Shown here: positions 45,927 through 58,337 of the stretch, in pieces
Layout: every line of letters starts with the position of its first letter
Position numbering within the stretch: position 1 is the first letter of the stretch
From: a virus
Taxonomy: Duplodnaviria > Caudoviricetes
Virus record (IMG/VR): IMGVR_UViG_3300021426_000064
Coordinates: 96,001-160,000 of that record
DNA: 64,000 bases
Strand: one strand, 5' to 3'
Notes under the pieces: model-generated
What the model saw: only the letters and a program-made list of their open reading frames with translations
Told to the model about the DNA's origin: nothing
Databases searched by the model: none
Position numbers and translations under genes: made by a program

Positions 45927-46049
45927 ATGCTATAGGCGCCATAAAACAGCATAAGTAGGCTGTAATAAGCGGACTGTAAGACTATTAATAAGCATAACCA
46001 TAATAATAATGCTATAAAACGTAGGAGCTGTAGGAGGAATCCGTAAACA

Positions 46050-46982
46050 ATGTCAATGACAAGTATTAAGCAAATAAATGGCGGCAAAGAACTTCAAGGC
46101 GATGTTCACGCCCTGTTAAATATAGTTGGAAAAGATAAGGAAGCGTTCTTTAACGAAATACTTAACTGGCTTTTGTCGGAAGCGCCGCAGGATTTTAATC
46201 CAGAAATTCTTAGAAGTAGTAAGTTAGTTAAGTTAGTAAGCTCGGCAGTAACAGTAAATAATGAATCTGACGTGCCGACAAAAACTCCTTACCTTAGCTT
46301 TATAGAGGAAAATGGTGAGCCATTCACTCTTAAGACTAATAATCTAGCCAAAAACTGGGATGGCACTCTTGAGTATTCAACTGATACTCAGAATTGGTCT
46401 GAGTGGGATGGCGCCGAAATTAGTTCTTCTAGTGATGGTAAGTTATATCTAAGGGGTATAGGAAATTCCAAAATTACTGGTAGTATTAACATACAATTTG
46501 TGCTAACCGACAACAAACGTATTCAATGTTTGGGCAACATAGAAAACTTATTAGACTACGCAACAGTATCTGCAGGTAATCATCCTGTAATGGCTGATTT
46601 TTGCTATAGCTCCATATTCTGTGACTGCACTTCCTTAACTGCAGCACCAGCGCTTCCCGCCACTACTTTAACTAAAATTTGTTATTCTAAGATGTTCAGT
46701 GGCTGTACTTCTCTTACTCAAGCACCTGAACTTCCTGCAACTATTTTAATTAAAAATTGCTATACTCAGATGTTCAAAGGATGTACTTCCCTTACTAAAG
46801 CCCCAGAAGAACTTCCAGCTACTACATTGGCAGGAAATTGCTATAGCAGCATGTTCGCTGACTGTACTTCCCTCACTGGTACTATTCATTGCCCTGCATC
46901 TACGGCAAATGATGAATATAGACTTGATGCCAATTCTAATAATATTCCAGCTAATACTGCTACCGTAGTTTATGACCTATAA
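46050..46982 (+). CDS. BspA-like leucine-rich-repeat virion/adhesin protein
   Basis: Repeats of LPATTL...CY..MF..CTSLT.AP. N-terminus shared with 57348 and 60227. Confidence 0.75.
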   Translation: MSMTSIKQINGGKELQGDVHALLNIVGKDKEAFFNEILNWLLSEAPQDFNPEILRSSKLVKLVSSAVTVNNESDVPTKTPYLSFIEENGEPFTLKTNNLAKNWDGTLEYSTDTQNWSEWDGAEISSSSDGKLYLRGIGNSKITGSINIQFVLTDNKRIQCLGNIENLLDYATVSAGNHPVMADFCYSSIFCDCTSLTAAPALPATTLTKICYSKMFSGCTSLTQAPELPATILIKNCYTQMFKGCTSLTKAPEELPATTLAGNCYSSMFADCTSLTGTIHCPASTANDEYRLDANSNNIPANTATVVYDL

Positions 46983-46999
46983 ATAAAGGAGTATCTTAT

Positions 47000-48022
47000 A
47001 TGCTTTCATTAGCTCAGACGATAAAAGACTTAAAAAATAATATAGTAAATATCTTAAACACCATGGCGCCCAAAACATACGTTGACAAAAAGGTGGCTGA
47101 TTTAGTTAATGGAGCGCCGGCGCAATTGGATACGCTTCAAGAATTATCCAAGGCGTTGAATAATGATAAGGACTTCGCTACAACAGTCAATAACTCCATC
47201 GCTAAGAAATTGAATATAGCCGGTGGTACGATTACTGGGGACCTTACAGTAAATGGTGCGCTAACAGGCAAGGCAAGTACGGCGGGAGTAGCCGATCGTG
47301 CTTTAAAAGCCGATGCATGCACTGGCAATGCCGCGTCAGCTTCCAGTGTTGCTTGGTCTGGAATAACCGGTAAGCCATCCAGCTATACACCTTCTGCGCA
47401 TAATCACGATAGTGCGTATCCTTCTACAACCGGAGTAAGGGCATCAGGGACTTGGGGTATCAATATTACCGGTTCTGCGGGTGGAGTAGCTTGGGCAAAT
47501 GTATCAGGCAAACCCACTTCTTTTACTCCGGCAAGCCATGGTCATGGTTGGGGAGAAATTAGTGATAAACCGGCACAAGCAACGAGATGGCCAACTTGGG
47601 GTGAGGTATCAGGAAAGCCTACCTCCTTTACACCTGCTACACACAATCATGCTTGGAATGACATTACGGGTAAACCATCAACATTTACGCCATCTGGCCA
47701 TAGCCATGGATGGGGCGATATCACTGGCGCACCGGCCACGGCTACGCGTTGGCCGACCTGGGATGAAATAACAGGCAAACCCGCTACCTTCCCGTCTAGT
47801 GGTGGCGGTACAGCGTCCAGTGTGGCATGGAATAATATTACAGGTAAACCATCGACTTTTGCACCGTCCAGCCATGGTCATGCATGGGGAGAGATTAGTG
47901 GAGCTCCGGCACAGGCGACCAGATGGCCGGCATGGAGCGAAGTTTCCAGTAAACCCGGAAGGATCGTTACCGTTGCATCTTGGGATGCTAGTACGGGTGT
48001 TCTGAAATTAAAAACGGTGTAA
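47000..48022 (+). CDS. Tail fibre protein
   Basis: LVNGAP..LDTL.EL..AL.ND..F motif, GGTITGDL, and repeats of W..I.GKP.TF.PS.H.H and ATRWPTW. Confidence 0.85.
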   Translation: MLSLAQTIKDLKNNIVNILNTMAPKTYVDKKVADLVNGAPAQLDTLQELSKALNNDKDFATTVNNSIAKKLNIAGGTITGDLTVNGALTGKASTAGVADRALKADACTGNAASASSVAWSGITGKPSSYTPSAHNHDSAYPSTTGVRASGTWGINITGSAGGVAWANVSGKPTSFTPASHGHGWGEISDKPAQATRWPTWGEVSGKPTSFTPATHNHAWNDITGKPSTFTPSGHSHGWGDITGAPATATRWPTWDEITGKPATFPSSGGGTASSVAWNNITGKPSTFAPSSHGHAWGEISGAPAQATRWPAWSEVSSKPGRIVTVASWDASTGVLKLKTV

Positions 48023-48034
48023 AGGATGTAGTCT

Positions 48035-48631
48035 ATGTCTCTTATTATTTCTGACGGCGAGCCAAAAGATATACAACTAAATGGAGCCGCCGTAAAAGAA
48101 GTTTGGTTTGACGGCAAAAAAGTTTGGCCTATTTTTGCCGTTATTATTGATGAATATACGATAACGGGTACGCTTACAACAGGTCTGTACTGGGAAAAAG
48201 AAAACGCAGATGGCGACTGCGAAGCGGTTGACCAGTGCTACGGCAATTGTCAGAACTCTGGTGTGCTTATTGACTGCGCAGGCGAAGGATATGAAAACTT
48301 CGTTGGCTATAAGTTGGAGTTAATTTTCAGTGCGCCCATTAAACATTTTCCGATAAAATACATTTCAAAATCTGGCGCCACAGTAATTATTGAAATTAAC
48401 AAATTTAAGTACGACAAAGAAAAAGGTACGTACACCCATGACTTTGGCGTATTAAAAGAGCTTGAACAAGTTCAATCCATATACCCTGCCGAAGGAGTAA
48501 AAGACTATAGCGTTTTCACATCTTGCAACATCACCGATGTAAACGAAGTGCCAGAGGATTGCTCCGAACCAGATTGTCAGTGCTCAGAGGAAATAAATTG
48601 TCCCGATGACGGCGCTGATGGCGGATTGTAA
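48035..48631 (+). CDS. Cys/acidic-rich fibre-associated protein, candidate radical SAM substrate
   Basis: N-terminal I.LNG..VKEVWFDGKKVW phage module. 9 Cys in two acidic clusters. Confidence 0.6.
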   Translation: MSLIISDGEPKDIQLNGAAVKEVWFDGKKVWPIFAVIIDEYTITGTLTTGLYWEKENADGDCEAVDQCYGNCQNSGVLIDCAGEGYENFVGYKLELIFSAPIKHFPIKYISKSGATVIIEINKFKYDKEKGTYTHDFGVLKELEQVQSIYPAEGVKDYSVFTSCNITDVNEVPEDCSEPDCQCSEEINCPDDGADGGL

Positions 48632-48648
48632 TAATAAAAGGTAAAAAA

Positions 48649-49683
48649 ATGAAGAAAAAAGTAAAAAAGATATTTTTCATGCTTGGCCCCAAATGCAACC
48701 TTCAATGTAAATACTGCTTGCAGCATGATATGGTTGAGTACGACACAGTAACCGTAAAGCCGGAAGTTAAGGAATGGCTGCGAGAACAAGTGCCGACAGA
48801 TTCAGAACCCCCATTTTGGGTTATCTTTTATGGCGGAGAACCGCTAGTTTATTGGGACACCATAAAAGACATCGTAAAAAGTGTAAGAGGAAATGTCCAA
48901 TATTCTATGATATCAAACGGAAAATTAATGACGGCCGATAAAGTCGATTTCATTAATGACTACGGTATGTGTACCATGATTTCATGGGACGGGGCCAATG
49001 TAGAAAAGACCCGTGGATATGATGTTGTAAAAAGCAATCCATGTATTTTAGACATAAAAAAGCTTGGCTTCTCGGCCGTACTAAGCTCTTATACATATCC
49101 TCTGGATTTTCTGAACGAAGCAGAGCCCATCCTTGCGGAGTATAAAAAAATCCATGGTTATGCTCCGATGATTAATATAGACACAATTATGGATTTTGGA
49201 AATTGCGGAGAACTACGTAAAATGGATTGCCGCAAGATTTCTGAACAGATGAATTTTATAATCAAACACAAGAAGGATAAGGGCTCGTATTACGGCATAG
49301 TTAGTAGGCTACAGAAGAAATATGTATTCTATAAGGAATATGTAGACAAGCGCGCCGTTTGCGGAAACGGCTACACTATCTGGAATGTGGATATTAATGG
49401 AGATCTTTACCGCTGTCATAACTGCGGCGAAAAAGTAGGAACTATCCATGACGACCCCGAAGATATTCTGGCTAGAGTAAAAGCCATTGACCCCACTTAT
49501 GAATATTACAAGAGCAAATGTAAGGATTGCCCGGCACAGCCGTTATGCCGCAGCGGATGTCCGATGATAGACGCTCAAGGGCGCGAAGATTATTTTTGCG
49601 GCATCCGAAAAGCATATTTGGGGCCAATCATTGAAGACTTTAATACTCCTAAGGAAACAGGAAGGATAATACACATTGGGTAA
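48649..49683 (+). CDS. Radical SAM/SPASM-domain protein
   Basis: CNLQCKYC, FYGGEPL, and SPASM cysteines CGNG...GDLYRC...CKDC....LCRSGCP...C. Confidence 0.92.
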   Translation: MKKKVKKIFFMLGPKCNLQCKYCLQHDMVEYDTVTVKPEVKEWLREQVPTDSEPPFWVIFYGGEPLVYWDTIKDIVKSVRGNVQYSMISNGKLMTADKVDFINDYGMCTMISWDGANVEKTRGYDVVKSNPCILDIKKLGFSAVLSSYTYPLDFLNEAEPILAEYKKIHGYAPMINIDTIMDFGNCGELRKMDCRKISEQMNFIIKHKKDKGSYYGIVSRLQKKYVFYKEYVDKRAVCGNGYTIWNVDINGDLYRCHNCGEKVGTIHDDPEDILARVKAIDPTYEYYKSKCKDCPAQPLCRSGCPMIDAQGREDYFCGIRKAYLGPIIEDFNTPKETGRIIHIG

Positions 49684-50431
49684 CGATATAGTAAAAGAAC
49701 AATCCGTTTATGTGCCGCAAGAACAACTTATCTTGGGGAATGTACTTGGAAGCACTCACTATGGGCTTGCGGATGAATGGTCTGATCGAGACGTATGCTA
49801 TCTGTTAATGCCGTCTAAGCGGGATTTGATCCGCGGGCGAAAACCTCAGCGCCTACTATTTAAAGAGCAGTGTGATATCAGTATGTTTGATATTCGCAGC
49901 CTGATGTTCTTTATTGCTGAAGGCGACATTAATAAACTCGGACTATTCTTTAACGATGACTATATGTATGTAGCTCCCCAGTTTAAGGATTTCGTCGACC
50001 AGCTTATCGCGCGGCGAGAAGATTTAATCAATACTATTTCGCCATCTATACATGCTTGGGCTTTGAATATGTTTGAGTATAAACTGGGGCAAATCCATTA
50101 CTACAAGGATGCTGAAGAAAAATACAAGCAGTTCGGTTACAACACGAAGAATGTGGCACAGGCTATTTATTATATCCGCATAGCCATGCAGTATTTTATC
50201 AACCGTAACTACAGCGTAGAAAATCCTATGCTAAAAGCCTATGATTGCTCCGGTTTTCGTGATGAAATCCTAGATATCAAACACGGCAAGTACTCGGAAG
50301 AGGAAGCTGTAGCTATAGCTGAAGCAGAATACGCGAAATTAATCGGTATTACCAACTTAGGAAGAAACCATAACGTAGGTTGGGTTAATCAACTGGTTTA
50401 CGGCGAAATAGAAAAAATGTTAGGAACGTGA
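49676..50431 (+). CDS. Pol-beta superfamily nucleotidyltransferase (RlaP/YcgL-like)
   Basis: GSTHYGL....SDRD motif, GYNTK and ILDIKHGKYS. Overlaps the rSAM stop. Confidence 0.8.
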   Translation: MGNDIVKEQSVYVPQEQLILGNVLGSTHYGLADEWSDRDVCYLLMPSKRDLIRGRKPQRLLFKEQCDISMFDIRSLMFFIAEGDINKLGLFFNDDYMYVAPQFKDFVDQLIARREDLINTISPSIHAWALNMFEYKLGQIHYYKDAEEKYKQFGYNTKNVAQAIYYIRIAMQYFINRNYSVENPMLKAYDCSGFRDEILDIKHGKYSEEEAVAIAEAEYAKLIGITNLGRNHNVGWVNQLVYGEIEKMLGT

Positions 50432-50437
50432 CGAATC

Positions 50438-50956
50438 ATGTTAACCCTACCTCAAATAATAAAAGACTTATTGTCTAAAGCTAAAACCATTAGTAATAAT
50501 ATCACAGAAACTTATGTTAAGAATTTAATCACTACGGAAATAGAGCGCTCTATCTCTTCTTCTACTGATGGGCCATTATATTTAGCTATTAAAAACGCGG
50601 CTTTTACCAACCTTCCTCCCAAGATTGGTTATGGCAAAGAAAAGACGCTTACAATCACCCCCATCGGGGGACAATTAAAAGTAAATATCCCCTCGCAGGC
50701 AATATACTTAGGTGGATTCGGCAGCATTATCCCCGCACAAACGATAAGCCTGCCAGCTAATCAGGATAATTACATTTATGTGGTCCGCGACGCCGCCGAC
50801 TATACAAAAGTAAACTTTGAGATTTACGACCACTTACTTGGCGGAAAAGATAAAGATATCCACTTTACCCGTATTCTTTGCGCCCGTTTTAAGACGAATG
50901 GTTCTAAGGTTATTGAACAGGAGGCGTTCGAGACAGCGAACTATTCCTGTTTTTAA
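50438..50956 (+). CDS. Appendage protein, minimal member of the NLPPKIGY family
   Basis: Shares N- and C-terminal modules with 50978 and 53527. Confidence 0.7.
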   Translation: MLTLPQIIKDLLSKAKTISNNITETYVKNLITTEIERSISSSTDGPLYLAIKNAAFTNLPPKIGYGKEKTLTITPIGGQLKVNIPSQAIYLGGFGSIIPAQTISLPANQDNYIYVVRDAADYTKVNFEIYDHLLGGKDKDIHFTRILCARFKTNGSKVIEQEAFETANYSCF

Positions 50957-50977
50957 CAATATGCATGGAGAGATTTT

Positions 50978-53530
50978 ATGTTAACGCTACCATTAATCTT
51001 AAAAGATTTAAAGAATTCTATAGGAATAGCGTACACTACGGTTACAAACGCCACCTTCCTAAATCGCATTAAAAATCGCATTAAGGAATCCGTCAACACG
51101 AATTCCTCATCTGGTGAAATATACAACGCTGTTAAGGATGCAGCGTTTACCAATTTGCCGCCCAAAATCGGCTATCTCGACGAAAAGACTGTCCCGATGT
51201 ACGCTGCTTACAATATGAGCAACATGGCCGTGACCGACTTACCTTGCTGGATTACTTCGGACTTGGAAGGGCGAGAGATTACCTATTTTAGAGCGTCTCA
51301 GGACGGAGCGCATGGCCTTCAGATATATCGCGCCTTTAGAAGTAACTTATCTGACACGAACGGCTATACTGTAGAAAATCAGCCACTAGCAATAACGATT
51401 GATGGCGTAGATACAAAGTTTAATCGTGTATATGGTATCTCTAACGATTATATTGTCTTACAGGCAGAAAATGGAAAACGTTACCACTTTGCTACCTACT
51501 ATTCTTCCAATACGGACAACTGGAAGTTAATGCGAGAAGTTACTCGTTTTAATAGCTACGGCGATGTAATGGATATCCTTTGGTTCGATTCAGTAAAAAG
51601 ATACCTTGTTGTATGCCAAACCGGACAGGGAATGGTATATCTCGTTGCAGATGAAAATCTGAACGAAATGTATCGCGATATGGTTTTTGACTTTACGCAG
51701 TTTCACCATAGTGGCAAACCAACCTGGACGTATCATTATAGCACGTATGGCAATACAGCTTCCGCAGCATACATACCAGACCAGAACCGGCTGGCAACCG
51801 TATTCCGAATGGATGCGAATGTCAGAGAAAACGGCTTTGTCATTTACAACTCGGATATGGCGCATCATCCATTGTATTGTAATACCATCAGTAATTTTAC
51901 CCCAGACAAACTACTGACAAATCATTACTTCGCTACGGCGCAATGGGATACCCCATTAGCCACTTATTACGATGCGGCAAAGTGGGATTGGTGGGGCGAT
52001 AATACGGTTAAGATGGCTACGGGATTAACCAGCCGTGGCACAGAATACTGCCAATATGACTCGCTGAATAAAATGTTTTATTACACGCATGGTGTTCGCG
52101 ACTGGGCCGGCGTATATATCAAGCGTATCGCCGTTGAAAACCTAAGTTCAAGGGCTGGCACTCGTTTTTTGGATGACAACGCCGGACAAGGATGGAACTG
52201 GCAAACACCAGACACTTCTCCGTGGGCCAAGCAAACATATGCCCCTTCCGTGATGTATGACTCTATCGTTTTACGCGCGCAGTCTAACAAGTACGGCGGT
52301 GCGTGGAATAATATTATTATTGCGCCGGAGACGACATCCAATGCAAATATACTGGCTGTTACGGCAGGCTCGTGGGCTGTAGGCGGTGGCGATATAACAA
52401 ATATTGACTGGGCTGCAGGGTATGGGCGTTATTCCTGCACGAAGGAAAACTTCAATGCTAAAGATGGCGTGTCATGGTATCAAATTCTGGAAGAGAATGG
52501 GTACTACAATGTTTACCGTCTAGATTATAAAGCTCGTAAGGATCAGGTTGGCAATACTTACAACGACAATGTGTATCGCCCCGCAAACCCTATAGCTAAA
52601 TTTAAAAAGACTCTTAACTTTGTTGGAGGCATAACGTCATTTGGCTCTTGGGCTTTTAGAAGCGCATCTTTTGGCGGCGGTAATAAGCTCATCATCTTCG
52701 GGCGCATTTCAAGCAATTATAAATGTGTGAAGAATAGTGAAGGCAAGTACGTTCCGCAAGACGAGAACGCTATGCCGGCCTATTATTTTATCTCGGAAGA
52801 TGGAAGCTATTACAAGGTAGATTTACCGCAAAACATGCGCGACTGGTATTTATCTGAAGCAAGTGACCGATGGCCATATATCCGAAATCCAGATTGGGTT
52901 AACCGTACGCCCTTCCTGGATAGTGACGGTCTGACGCTCTATTATAATAGTCATGAATTCTATCATGGCAATGGCGATTACTGCTTCGCTGGTTGGAGAG
53001 TAATTTTTTCTTCCGACCTTAAGACTGCTACAAAAGTTGATTCTGTAGCTGCAGGTGATGGCACATGGTGTGGCATCGAAGTTCTTGGTTGGAATAAGCG
53101 CTTCGGTTATTATCGTACTCGCACCAGAAACCGTACAGGCTCTTTAATCGATACCAGCGCTACAAGCCCGATTAATGTCATTAACCTTGGCGGTGACGTA
53201 AAAACATATACCATCAATAATAGTGGCTCGGTAGGTCTAATCGCTTATATTCAGGCAACGCCTATTTATCTCGGCGGTTATTACAGCGTACTGCCTGCTA
53301 CGGAAGTATATCTAAAAGCCAATAGTGACAATTACATTTACCTATCCAGAGATAAATTGGACTACCAGAAAATAAACGTAGAGAATTACGACCATTTGCT
53401 GGGGGCACAGAATAACGATATGGGCATTAACTTCTCCCGTATCCTTATCTCGAAAATAACTACGGATAATAAAGGCGCTACGAGCCAGGAGTATTTTAAT
53501 ATCGATTATTACGGAGCAAGCAAGTCATGA
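50978..53530 (+). CDS. Large appendage/receptor-binding protein (NLPPKIGY family, inserted beta-rich domain)
   Basis: 850 aa. Shared termini flank about 670 aa of W/Y-rich sequence. Confidence 0.7.
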   Translation: MLTLPLILKDLKNSIGIAYTTVTNATFLNRIKNRIKESVNTNSSSGEIYNAVKDAAFTNLPPKIGYLDEKTVPMYAAYNMSNMAVTDLPCWITSDLEGREITYFRASQDGAHGLQIYRAFRSNLSDTNGYTVENQPLAITIDGVDTKFNRVYGISNDYIVLQAENGKRYHFATYYSSNTDNWKLMREVTRFNSYGDVMDILWFDSVKRYLVVCQTGQGMVYLVADENLNEMYRDMVFDFTQFHHSGKPTWTYHYSTYGNTASAAYIPDQNRLATVFRMDANVRENGFVIYNSDMAHHPLYCNTISNFTPDKLLTNHYFATAQWDTPLATYYDAAKWDWWGDNTVKMATGLTSRGTEYCQYDSLNKMFYYTHGVRDWAGVYIKRIAVENLSSRAGTRFLDDNAGQGWNWQTPDTSPWAKQTYAPSVMYDSIVLRAQSNKYGGAWNNIIIAPETTSNANILAVTAGSWAVGGGDITNIDWAAGYGRYSCTKENFNAKDGVSWYQILEENGYYNVYRLDYKARKDQVGNTYNDNVYRPANPIAKFKKTLNFVGGITSFGSWAFRSASFGGGNKLIIFGRISSNYKCVKNSEGKYVPQDENAMPAYYFISEDGSYYKVDLPQNMRDWYLSEASDRWPYIRNPDWVNRTPFLDSDGLTLYYNSHEFYHGNGDYCFAGWRVIFSSDLKTATKVDSVAAGDGTWCGIEVLGWNKRFGYYRTRTRNRTGSLIDTSATSPINVINLGGDVKTYTINNSGSVGLIAYIQATPIYLGGYYSVLPATEVYLKANSDNYIYLSRDKLDYQKINVENYDHLLGAQNNDMGINFSRILISKITTDNKGATSQEYFNIDYYGASKS

Positions 53531-57347: not shown

Positions 57348-58337
57348 ATGTACATGTCTCTTACAAACCTCTCTCAGATTAAAGGTCTGAAAAATCTTCG
57401 CAGCGATGTAGACTTGCTCTTAAAGTCCTATGATGCTGCAAAAGTAGTTACCCAAATCGCTAAAGCTGAAGGCGAAGGCAACTACAATGTCGAGGAACTG
57501 CTCGAAGCATTGAAGTCCAAACTGGATGCCATCGCTGGCACCGAAGGCGAAGGCCAGTCTCTCGACGCCTTAAAAAAGGCCATTGATGGCCTGAAGAATA
57601 AGGCTATTAAGGCTTACACGGGCAATGCTGAAGAACCCGTAAAAGAATACAAGCTGGCTGAACTGCCTGAAGACGCACTCTTAAAAGGTGAAGAGCTGGA
57701 TATTACGGCTTACCAGAATGCCTTGGACGCGCTGGTAGCTAAACTGGCCGCCAATAAGGAACTTATTAACGCTGTTAAAGAGCTTATCGGCGATAAGAGC
57801 GTACAGACAAGCATCGAAGAAGCAGTAGCTGAAGTTAATGCAGCGCTGGCTCTTAAAGGTGACAAGGCCGTAGTTGAAAAGGCCGATGCTGACCTGAAGA
57901 TTCTGGATACCAAGATTGAAGAGCTGGAAAACAGCACAGTAGTTGAAGTACAGGACGTTATCGAGCTGGGCGAAGTTCAGGTTGATCTGCCACTTTCCGA
58001 TTCTCCCAAAGCTCAGGAAGTGCGCCTCTACGTTAATGGTGCCGTTTATTACGAGAACGATGACTTCACCGTTGACCGCAAGGCTAAGAAGTTGACCTGG
58101 ACCTCCGCTGATTTTGCTTTGACGAGTGCTATCGCCGCCAAAGTTACGGCTAAGTATTACGTCGATGCGGGCCTGGGCTTTGATCCGTCCCTCATCCAGA
58201 TTGACGATTCAAAGATTACTCTAACTCGTGAAGAGCCTGAGAAGTCCTTTAACGTAACCATCCCGGCTGACTGTACGCTGGAAGTAGTTCCGAGCGATCC
58301 TGAAGCTGTTGAAGTAACGGTAACGGAAGTTCAGTAA
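57348..58337 (+). CDS. Virion appendage carrier protein ending in half an Ig-like domain
   Basis: Paralog of 60227 (MSLTNL.QIKG, NYNVEELL, DDFTVDR...TW). Strong SD, probable start ATG 57354. Confidence 0.75.
   Translation: MYMSLTNLSQIKGLKNLRSDVDLLLKSYDAAKVVTQIAKAEGEGNYNVEELLEALKSKLDAIAGTEGEGQSLDALKKAIDGLKNKAIKAYTGNAEEPVKEYKLAELPEDALLKGEELDITAYQNALDALVAKLAANKELINAVKELIGDKSVQTSIEEAVAEVNAALALKGDKAVVEKADADLKILDTKIEELENSTVVEVQDVIELGEVQVDLPLSDSPKAQEVRLYVNGAVYYENDDFTVDRKAKKLTWTSADFALTSAIAAKVTAKYYVDAGLGFDPSLIQIDDSKITLTREEPEKSFNVTIPADCTLEVVPSDPEAVEVTVTEVQ

Follow-up and report, generated by a model that had tools for sequence, protein, structure and literature searches.

A radical SAM/SPASM enzyme, a cysteine-rich protein and a nucleotidyltransferase in a phage tail-fibre module: a candidate system for fibre modification

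A three-gene block within a tail-fibre module

The window analyzed here (64,000 nucleotides, bases 96001-160000 of the 184-kb IMG/VR virus record IMGVR_UViG_3300021426_000064, which is estimated to be 78% complete) comes from a large gut or rumen phage and carries almost all of its large open reading frames (ORFs) on the + strand. Our subject is a block of three genes within its tail-fibre module, encoding a cysteine- and acid-rich protein (P0001), a radical S-adenosylmethionine (SAM)/SPASM enzyme (P0002) and a Pol-beta-type nucleotidyltransferase (P0003), which we examine as a putative system for the enzymatic modification of a fibre part (Table 1). An earlier reading of this DNA from its letters alone (hereafter the sequence-only reading) had described the block as tightly packed between fibre genes without a visible promoter or terminator, and both descriptions held: the three ORFs lie where it had placed them, with fibre genes on both flanks and successive spacings of 12 nt (48023-48034), 17 nt (48632-48648), an 8-nt overlap (49676-49683) and 6 nt (50432-50437), and neither promoter-like sites (14 versus 13.6 in shuffled sequence) nor terminator-like sites (6 versus 4.4) were enriched. 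The upstream fibre gene matched many PHROG tail-fibre families (best phrog_23676, 7.5e-44) and contains five ..P(S/T)xF(T/A)PxxHxH.. units; its N-terminal tag is common to the genes starting at 50438, 50978 and 53527, the latter two being large, and its C-terminal strand, ..SWDASTGVLKLKTV, also ends the fibre genes in loci L009, L011, L015, L093 and L176. When positions 46000-51000 were compared by megablast with 50,697 phage records, no near-identical one was found.

Table 1. Genes and features of the three-gene block and its flanks (window coordinates)
Feature	Position	Strand	Remarks
Tail-fibre stalk gene, 340 aa	47000..48022	+	directly upstream of the cassette; ends ..IVTVASWDASTGVLKLKTV
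P0001, Cys/acid-rich protein, 198 aa, 9 Cys	48035..48631	+	putative substrate
P0001 N-terminal tag, residues 1-32 (..IQLNGAAVKEVWFDGKKVWP)	48035..48130	+	modelled as two short strands; conserved in the family
P0001 internal Cys loop, residues 57-85, 4 Cys, 6 D/E	48203..48289	+	pLDDT 34-47, disordered in the model
P0001 C-terminal Cys/acid tail, residues 171-198 (..EDCSEPDCQCSEEINCPDDGADGGL)	48545..48628	+	pLDDT 31-48; degenerate terminal tag
P0002, radical SAM/SPASM enzyme, 344 aa, no RRE	48649..49683	+	PF04055 and TIGR04085 above cut-off
P0002 CxxxCxxC radical SAM cluster motif, C16/C20/C23	48694..48717	+	invariant in 30 homologues
P0002 SPASM domain, seven invariant Cys (C238, C256, C291, C294, C300, C304, C317)	49360..49599	+	alignment; TIGR04085 match
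P0003, Pol-beta-type nucleotidyltransferase, 251 aa, TTG start, RlaP-like	49676..50431	+	phrog_388 match
Next fibre-module gene, 172 aa	50438..50956	+	N-terminus like that of 47000-48022; downstream edge of the cassette
pLDDT, predicted local distance difference test; RRE, RiPP recognition element (RiPPs being peptides made by the ribosome and modified after translation).

The order fibre gene, P0001 homologue, radical SAM gene and nucleotidyltransferase gene recurs in four diverged phage or prophage lineages, namely the group of the window (L002, L003, L006), L009/L010, L015, and L093/L176, the last being a Selenomonadales prophage with a nearby amidase gene and an integrase-like gene. Across these lineages identity falls to 35% for P0001 and 47% for the radical SAM enzyme, the genes downstream vary, and the radical SAM and nucleotidyltransferase genes overlap by 4 or 8 nt in every trio locus. 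In L009 (3743-4045) and L010 (3743-4409) the fibre gene is parted from the trio by an antisense HTH_3 gene, beside which L010 also has a RelE gene; the trio can thus be separated from its fibre and yet stay together. Each trio homologue is preceded by a fibre gene whose product ends in a similar strand motif, ..SWD(A/G)ST..L.T.., and in L015 (3843-4397) a Cys-poor paralogue bearing the 32-residue N-terminal tag of P0001 on a different body stands beside the Cys-rich protein; because of this shared tag and the recurring strand motif, the tag may serve to dock P0001 on the fibre end. A quick maximum-likelihood tree (IQ-TREE) grouped the trio enzymes with that of L014 (Shimodaira-Hasegawa-like approximate likelihood ratio test, SH-aLRT, 97); in this sister locus there is no nucleotidyltransferase gene, and a 454-aa fibre, encoded 3 nt before the radical SAM gene, carries at its end a fused tail homologous to that of proteins P0010-P0012.

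The enzyme P0002 and its cysteine-rich neighbour P0001

Aligned with 30 homologues (31-71% identity), P0002 is by sequence an intact radical SAM/SPASM protein in which ten cysteines are invariant, three in the cluster motif and seven in the SPASM domain. It belongs to the radical SAM superfamily (Pfam Radical_SAM PF04055, 38.9 bits, cut-off 29.5) and contains a SPASM domain (NCBIfam TIGR04085, 40.2 bits, cut-off 27, residues 238-310), in which the seven-Cys pattern CX9-15GX4C - gap - CX2CX5CX3C - gap - C is complete. Since the cluster motif starts at residue 16 and ends at residue 23, there is no space for an N-terminal RRE, as the sequence-only reading had pointed out. The best-scoring curated model was that of the PapB family (NF047865), at 93.4 bits against a cut-off of 340 (a homologue, P0028, reached 104 bits), followed by the models of QhpD (TIGR03906, 58.8 bits, cut-off 453), SCIFF maturase (56 bits, cut-off 425) and the anaerobic sulfatase-maturating enzyme (anSME; TIGR03942, 46 bits, cut-off 349), and a viperin-family model matched weakly (43 bits). 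The CrpC-type model TIGR04463 (RRE, radical SAM and SPASM; cut-off 525 bits) was not among the best 25 of the 56 NCBIfam matches of P0002, and the distant phage homologue P0017 matched it at 41 bits. P0002 was therefore not assigned to the PapB, QhpD, SCIFF, anSME or CrpC family, all scores being far below cut-off, and its resemblance to PapB stops short of family membership and does not extend to RRE-based leader recognition. The closest solved structure was that of CteB (PDB 5wgg, 1.5e-9). By these comparisons the nearest kin of P0002 are thioether-forming maturases, and no curated equivalog family contains it. In the 184-kb record P0002 is the only radical SAM enzyme and P0001 the only real gene with a Cys/acid tract; a search of this record, about 78% complete, for a second radical SAM enzyme or another Cys-tagged protein found none, and the N-terminal tag of P0001 was not found on other proteins of the same genome.

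As had been read from the sequence, P0001 contains nine cysteines in two acidic stretches (residues 62, 68, 72 and 81, and 164, 176, 181, 183 and 189), with CEAVD, CNITD, CSEPD and CQCSE all present. It had no match in Pfam, PHROG or NCBIfam, and its homologues comprise seven database proteins and further locus copies. An AlphaFold2 (AF2) model of P0001 (mean pLDDT 63) contains an Ig-like beta-sandwich at residues 39-170 (pLDDT 74-86), and the low-confidence segments coincide with the Cys-rich loop and tail, so that in this model the cysteine-bearing segments are predicted to be flexible and hence accessible. A Foldseek search against the PDB returned nothing at E <= 0.001, a wide search with the model by VIA-align returned generic Ig-like sandwiches alone (Z <= 4.8), and the ESM Atlas gave no usable match. 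Among the homologues the number of cysteines ranges from 5 to 17 and only one or two are invariant (C81 is); the count trades between the two segments, homologues with a single cysteine in the tail having a Cys-dense loop.

The sequence-only reading had taken the CX3D/E spacing of four of these cysteines as a PapB-like signature. This argument failed, as the four CX3[D/E] spacings of P0001 did not exceed chance (mean 2.2 in shuffles of the two Cys-rich segments, P = 0.14) and the spacing is not conserved, varying in homologues from 1/8 to 7/17 cysteines. What is conserved instead is an Asp, Glu or Asn immediately before the cysteine ([D/E/N]-Cys) and a C-terminal tag of the form ..C.C[G/S]DD..GG. 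The former accounts for 95/113 cysteines across the P0001 family, with P <= 0.003 in 8/11 members. As to the latter, P0001, whose gene adjoins the radical SAM gene 17 nt upstream, ends in ..INCPDDGADGGL (..NCPDDGADGGL), a degenerate version of the terminal pattern [N/D]C[N/D]C[G/S]DD..GG, and its tail fits a relaxed form of the pattern.

Cysteine-tagged neighbours across the enzyme family

The radical SAM family to which P0002 belongs has no fewer than 131 relatives in the databases (330-380 aa), none with an RRE, and occurs mainly in Negativicutes phages and prophages. IMG/VR and a set of genomes, one for each species, were scanned and yielded 159 loci, with hosts mostly among the Negativicutes (Acidaminococcus, Megasphaera, Phascolarctobacterium, Selenomonadales, Succiniclasticum) and some in Sutterella and Elusimicrobiota. 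Neighbourhoods were surveyed in 67 loci whose radical SAM sequences are distinct and reach 190 bits or more with the family profile, a Cys-repeat tract being defined as at least 5 Cys in 25 aa and a gene being counted as near when within 3 kb of the radical SAM gene. A Cys-tract gene was present within 3 kb in 50/67 loci, compared to 5/63 beyond 3 kb (Fisher 1e-15), and the difference was also seen per gene (66/473 near versus 5/270 far, 4e-9). The tracts consist of (CQx)n runs, NCNCDC runs or both, and are found either on small proteins (100-200 aa) or at the C-terminal end of fibres of collagen-like or repeat type (200-460 aa). The terminal tag, [N/D]C[N/D]C[G/S]DD with Gly/Ser after it, closes 89/577 ORFs within 3 kb and 0/293 farther away; it is present in 38/67 loci, in many of which two or three proteins bear it. 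The survey of homologue neighbourhoods that had been proposed as a check thus found Cys-rich fibre-type partners to co-occur with the enzyme far above background.

Cultured phages with more distant enzymes of this kind also have such tracts on their fibres, and Achromobacter phage JWF, like phage 2-1, carries a distant member of the pairing. In Achromobacter phage 2-1 (L008:2682-4124), the gene two before the radical SAM gene encodes a 481-aa fibre-like protein in which NCNCDCNCSC directly precedes a Hint-like CFPAGT.. segment. In Ralstonia phage RSP15, which has been cultured, ORF048 (L179:1257-2129), annotated as a side tail fibre and located three genes before a distant radical SAM homologue (23% identity), ends ..LSMSNTNCQCGN (..NTNCQCGN). 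Collectively, the sequences strongly support the view that the radical SAM/SPASM enzyme and its Cys-rich neighbour form a pair of enzyme and substrate. The pairing proposed by the sequence-only reading is therefore upheld, on the grounds that the trio recurs in four lineages and that the family is linked to Cys-repeat proteins of fibre type; the CX3D/E spacing on which it had been based is not.

Several further observations were made in these loci. In a Sporomusaceae genome (L013:4865-5350), which probably holds a prophage remnant here, a 161-aa protein with a tail of the type seen in L014, about ten (N/D)C or SSDC units followed by a (GD)n run of about 30 residues, is encoded 650 bp upstream of a 39%-identical radical SAM gene, by helix-turn-helix (HTH) and DUF722-like genes. 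In Negativicutes prophages a free-standing Hint-like protein of about 130 aa follows the Cys-repeat genes (L095:6801-7196, with a weak Hint_2 match of 2.8e-4; L098:6838-7248; L110:6095-6484), and the occurrence of Hint-type domains with Cys tags suggests that autoprocessing may generate the tag end or attach it to another partner. About 2 kb after the first radical SAM gene, Negativicutes prophage cassettes have another that is more divergent (L095:7889-8962, L110:7330-8292), the two being separated by the Hint-like gene and a gene for a conserved protein of about 280 aa without a family match. In the window itself, the ORF at 46050-46982 encodes 310 aa with 11 Cys outside acidic or repeat tracts and a weak, sub-cut-off match to BspA-type leucine-rich repeats (PF13306, 18 bits); its N-terminal tag differs from that of the stalk gene at 47000-48022 and is common to the genes at 57348 and 60227. 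The repeat of that stalk gene, of the type P(S/T)xF(T/A)PxxHxH(G/A/D)W, resembles the His-x-His motif with which the needle of the T4 long fibre binds metal.

Candidate chemistry, competing explanations and significance

We read the trio as a conserved cassette in which a leaderless radical SAM enzyme cross-links, through thioethers, a P0001 protein docked at the fibre tip, a reading to which we assign a probability of roughly 0.55; that the phage chemically modifies a fibre part in some manner is probable. Thioether cross-linking is the probable chemistry of P0002 by sequence comparison, because its nearest profiles (PapB, QhpD, SCIFF) and its solved relative CteB form thioethers, because the cysteines are flanked by Asp, Asn or Gln across the family, and because the SPASM domain has the seven-Cys set found in CrpC. 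The closest parallel to such an arrangement is this last enzyme, from Methanococcus voltae, which was shown experimentally to install ranthionine links at C-X-X-Q/D motifs of the 28.8-kDa protein CrpA, and whose seven-Cys SPASM set leaves an open iron on AuxI for the substrate cysteine; the paper makes no mention of phages (Dieter et al. 2026, PMC13692751). As proposed for our locus, a seven-Cys SPASM enzyme acts there on a whole Cys-rich protein and not on a short peptide, and in CrpA the cysteines are followed by Gln/Asp acceptors in a C-terminal, repetitive region. The two differ in that CrpC, which is archaeal and cellular, has an RRE and CrpA a leader-like N-terminus of 47 residues, whereas P0002 lacks an RRE, has a fibre-module protein as its partner and is accompanied by a nucleotidyltransferase.

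Other thioether-forming systems are similar in part. QhpD, also a radical SAM/SPASM enzyme, installs Cys-to-Asp/Glu thioether links in QhpC, a structural subunit of quinohemoprotein amine dehydrogenase; its model, besides matching P0002 far under cut-off, spans about 467 positions including an N-terminal region not present in P0002, and its gene belongs to a cellular enzyme operon, not to a virion module. The ranthipeptide maturases, among them PapB with its substrate PapA (freyrasin), NxxcB and CteB of the SCIFF group, supply both the best curated profile (PapB) and the best solved relative (CteB), and join Cys donors to Asp, Glu, Asn or Thr acceptors. Their products are short secreted peptides, unlike the folded 198-aa partner here, and PapB depends on its RRE for leader recognition (PMC12373016), a mode not available to P0002, in whose partner the CX3D spacing is neither significant nor conserved.

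The same substrate might instead undergo another chemistry, such as an anSME-like conversion of Cys to formylglycine or some other modification without cross-links in the loop and tail, yielding reactive or metal-binding groups in place of thioether rings. Like P0002, anSMEs are RRE-less radical SAM/SPASM proteins of about 340-370 aa with the cluster motif near residue 16, and act directly on a protein substrate, so that the layout of P0002 fits them as well as it fits thioether synthases; moreover, TIGR03942 does match P0002, and a homologue from Achromobacter phage JWF was deposited as 'anaerobic sulfatase-maturating enzyme'. Against this stand the anSME score, which is below those of the PapB, QhpD and SCIFF models as well as far under its own cut-off, and the absence from P0001 of the sulfatase motif C/S-x-P/A-x-R; no sulfatase gene was found among the large ORFs and family matches examined in the window. 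Furthermore, P0002 has seven conserved SPASM cysteines, as does CrpC, whereas anSMEs have eight, and the residues flanking the cysteines belong to the acceptor classes of ranthipeptides. We consider this alternative unlikely.

As regards the location of the product, P0001 would reside in the virion, at the fibre tip, given its position and the fusion of its type of tail to fibres in other loci. Small genes immediately after a fibre gene are familiar from the gp38 adhesin of T2/T6 and from Tfa of lambda and Mu, with a product that, as proposed here for P0001, attaches to the fibre at its distal end; P0001 has no sequence or fold similarity to these, and we know of no gp38/Tfa-type fibre accessory that is enzymatically cross-linked. 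Alternatively, the modified protein may not be part of the virion, being either a fibre-assembly chaperone that departs or a released RiPP-like product acting on competing cells or the host. Genes for proteins of about 200 aa just downstream of fibre genes often encode assembly chaperones (of the lambda Tfa and T4 gp38 types), and P0001 had neither a fold match to a known virion protein nor a PHROG match. We nevertheless regard a non-virion role as unlikely, since long fibres of collagen-like or repeat type have the same tail or tag fused at their C-terminal end (L014, L110, and the Achromobacter and Ralstonia phage fibres), the N-terminus of P0001 is not signal peptide-like, and its N-terminal tag is carried in L015 by the adjoining paralogous head-like protein as well.

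The role of the nucleotidyltransferase bears on a further alternative. P0003 matched phrog_388 (2.3e-15) and fell just under the cut-off for Pfam RlaP (PF10127, 22.3 bits against 23); it has the RlaP-type Pol-beta motif G-S ... DxD ... D, in which G25-S26, D37xD39 and D72 are invariant, and is therefore probably catalytically active, judging from these residues. The solved folds nearest to its AF2 model (pLDDT 88) were the Hailong defence protein HalB (E 1e-4, TM about 0.5) and the kanamycin nucleotidyltransferase ANT(4'), and its Atlas neighbours were RlaP clusters (0.97). The family of P0003 has 1,261 representatives at E <= 0.001, of which only five reach 1e-30; every placed relative at >= 35% identity lies in a trio, and the nucleotidyltransferase is thus tied to the P0001-type cassette and not to the radical SAM family. 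RlaP-type genes of Bacillus-group phages sit among early genes with no radical SAM gene nearby. A general partnership of this enzyme with the radical SAM family was rejected, as it was found only in loci of the P0001 family. The translational coupling described by the sequence-only reading is confirmed by the overlap in every trio locus; L014, however, lacks the gene, and of the two roles which that reading had offered for the nucleotidyltransferase, second modifier or passenger, we hold the odds to be about even that it helps with the P0001 substrate or is a lineage-specific passenger.

In this alternative the Cys/acid segments would be metal-binding or disulfide elements of a fibre part and no enzyme substrates, and the radical SAM enzyme and nucleotidyltransferase would act together on another target, for example a small molecule, a nucleotide or a product directed against host defence. 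The coupling of the two enzyme genes in every trio locus, the resemblance of P0003 to HalB and to small-molecule nucleotidyltransferases and the weak viperin-family match of P0002 favour it, as do the five HxH motifs of the upstream fibre, His-x-His metal sites being known in fibre proteins such as T4 gp37. Yet outside the trio clade the radical SAM family retains its Cys-repeat neighbours without the nucleotidyltransferase, the association with Cys tracts and terminal tags is far over background, and a SPASM domain with a full Cys set is typical of peptide or protein maturases; we therefore judge this explanation improbable. Also unlikely, in our estimation, is a more elaborate arrangement in which the leaderless radical SAM enzyme is directed by the C-terminal tag and places covalent thioether links in receptor-binding fibre ends, possibly between subunits or tagged proteins, while the nucleotidyltransferase obligatorily nucleotidylates the same tip protein; if true, the virion adhesin would be modified twice over, and no counterpart of it is known.

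Under the reading we prefer, thioether cross-linking of a fibre-tip P0001, the enzyme would act during fibre protein synthesis in the cytoplasm of an anaerobic host. P0002 would bind the exposed Cys-rich loop and tail directly, without a leader and perhaps via the acidic, Gly-rich terminal end, abstract hydrogen from the side chain of an Asp, Asn or Glu close by and join that side chain to the cysteine sulfur. The resulting ranthionine-type thioether links would lock loop and tail into a rigid knot that resists proteases and reduction, and the modified P0001, docked by its N-terminal tag, would ride on the distal end of the fibre encoded upstream; the nucleotidyltransferase would either assist on P0001 or be a passenger of the lineage.

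Several points weigh against this reading. The model of P0001 is of only middling confidence, and no fold match marks the protein as a virion component. Its Cys density (4 per 25 aa) lies under the survey threshold of 5, its [D/E/N]-Cys pairs (6/9) do not reach significance (P = 0.055), and its tag is degenerate. On the side of the enzyme, the curated maturase models all score P0002 far below cut-off, and the SPASM clade spans several chemistries. Related Negativicutes prophages dominate the survey, so that the counted loci are not independent of each other, and one locus of the family, L011, has no recognizable Cys-rich partner. The locus of the window is a weak and degenerate example of the substrate; what it adds is a carrier of Ig-like type bearing a putative docking tag, together with a nucleotidyltransferase in tight coupling.

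A full-text literature search found no paper linking radical SAM/SPASM enzymes with phage fibres, virions or receptor-binding proteins, and, proteolysis and the isopeptide links of HK97-type capsids aside, hardly any case is known to us in which enzymes modify phage particles post-translationally. We propose, by inference from these loci, a class in which RiPP-type cysteine chemistry is applied to folded fibre-module proteins by a leaderless, RRE-less enzyme. If so, this chemistry would extend to folded proteins via a short C-terminal tag, which may potentially serve as a tool. It would also explain why oxygen-sensitive enzymes are carried in phage tail modules, and fibre proteins made without the enzyme could misfold or be inactive, which matters for structural work and for the engineering of receptor-binding proteins. 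If the radical SAM enzyme hardens or reshapes receptor-binding fibre ends, both host recognition and the stability of particles in the protease-rich, reducing environment of the gut or rumen would gain a further layer.

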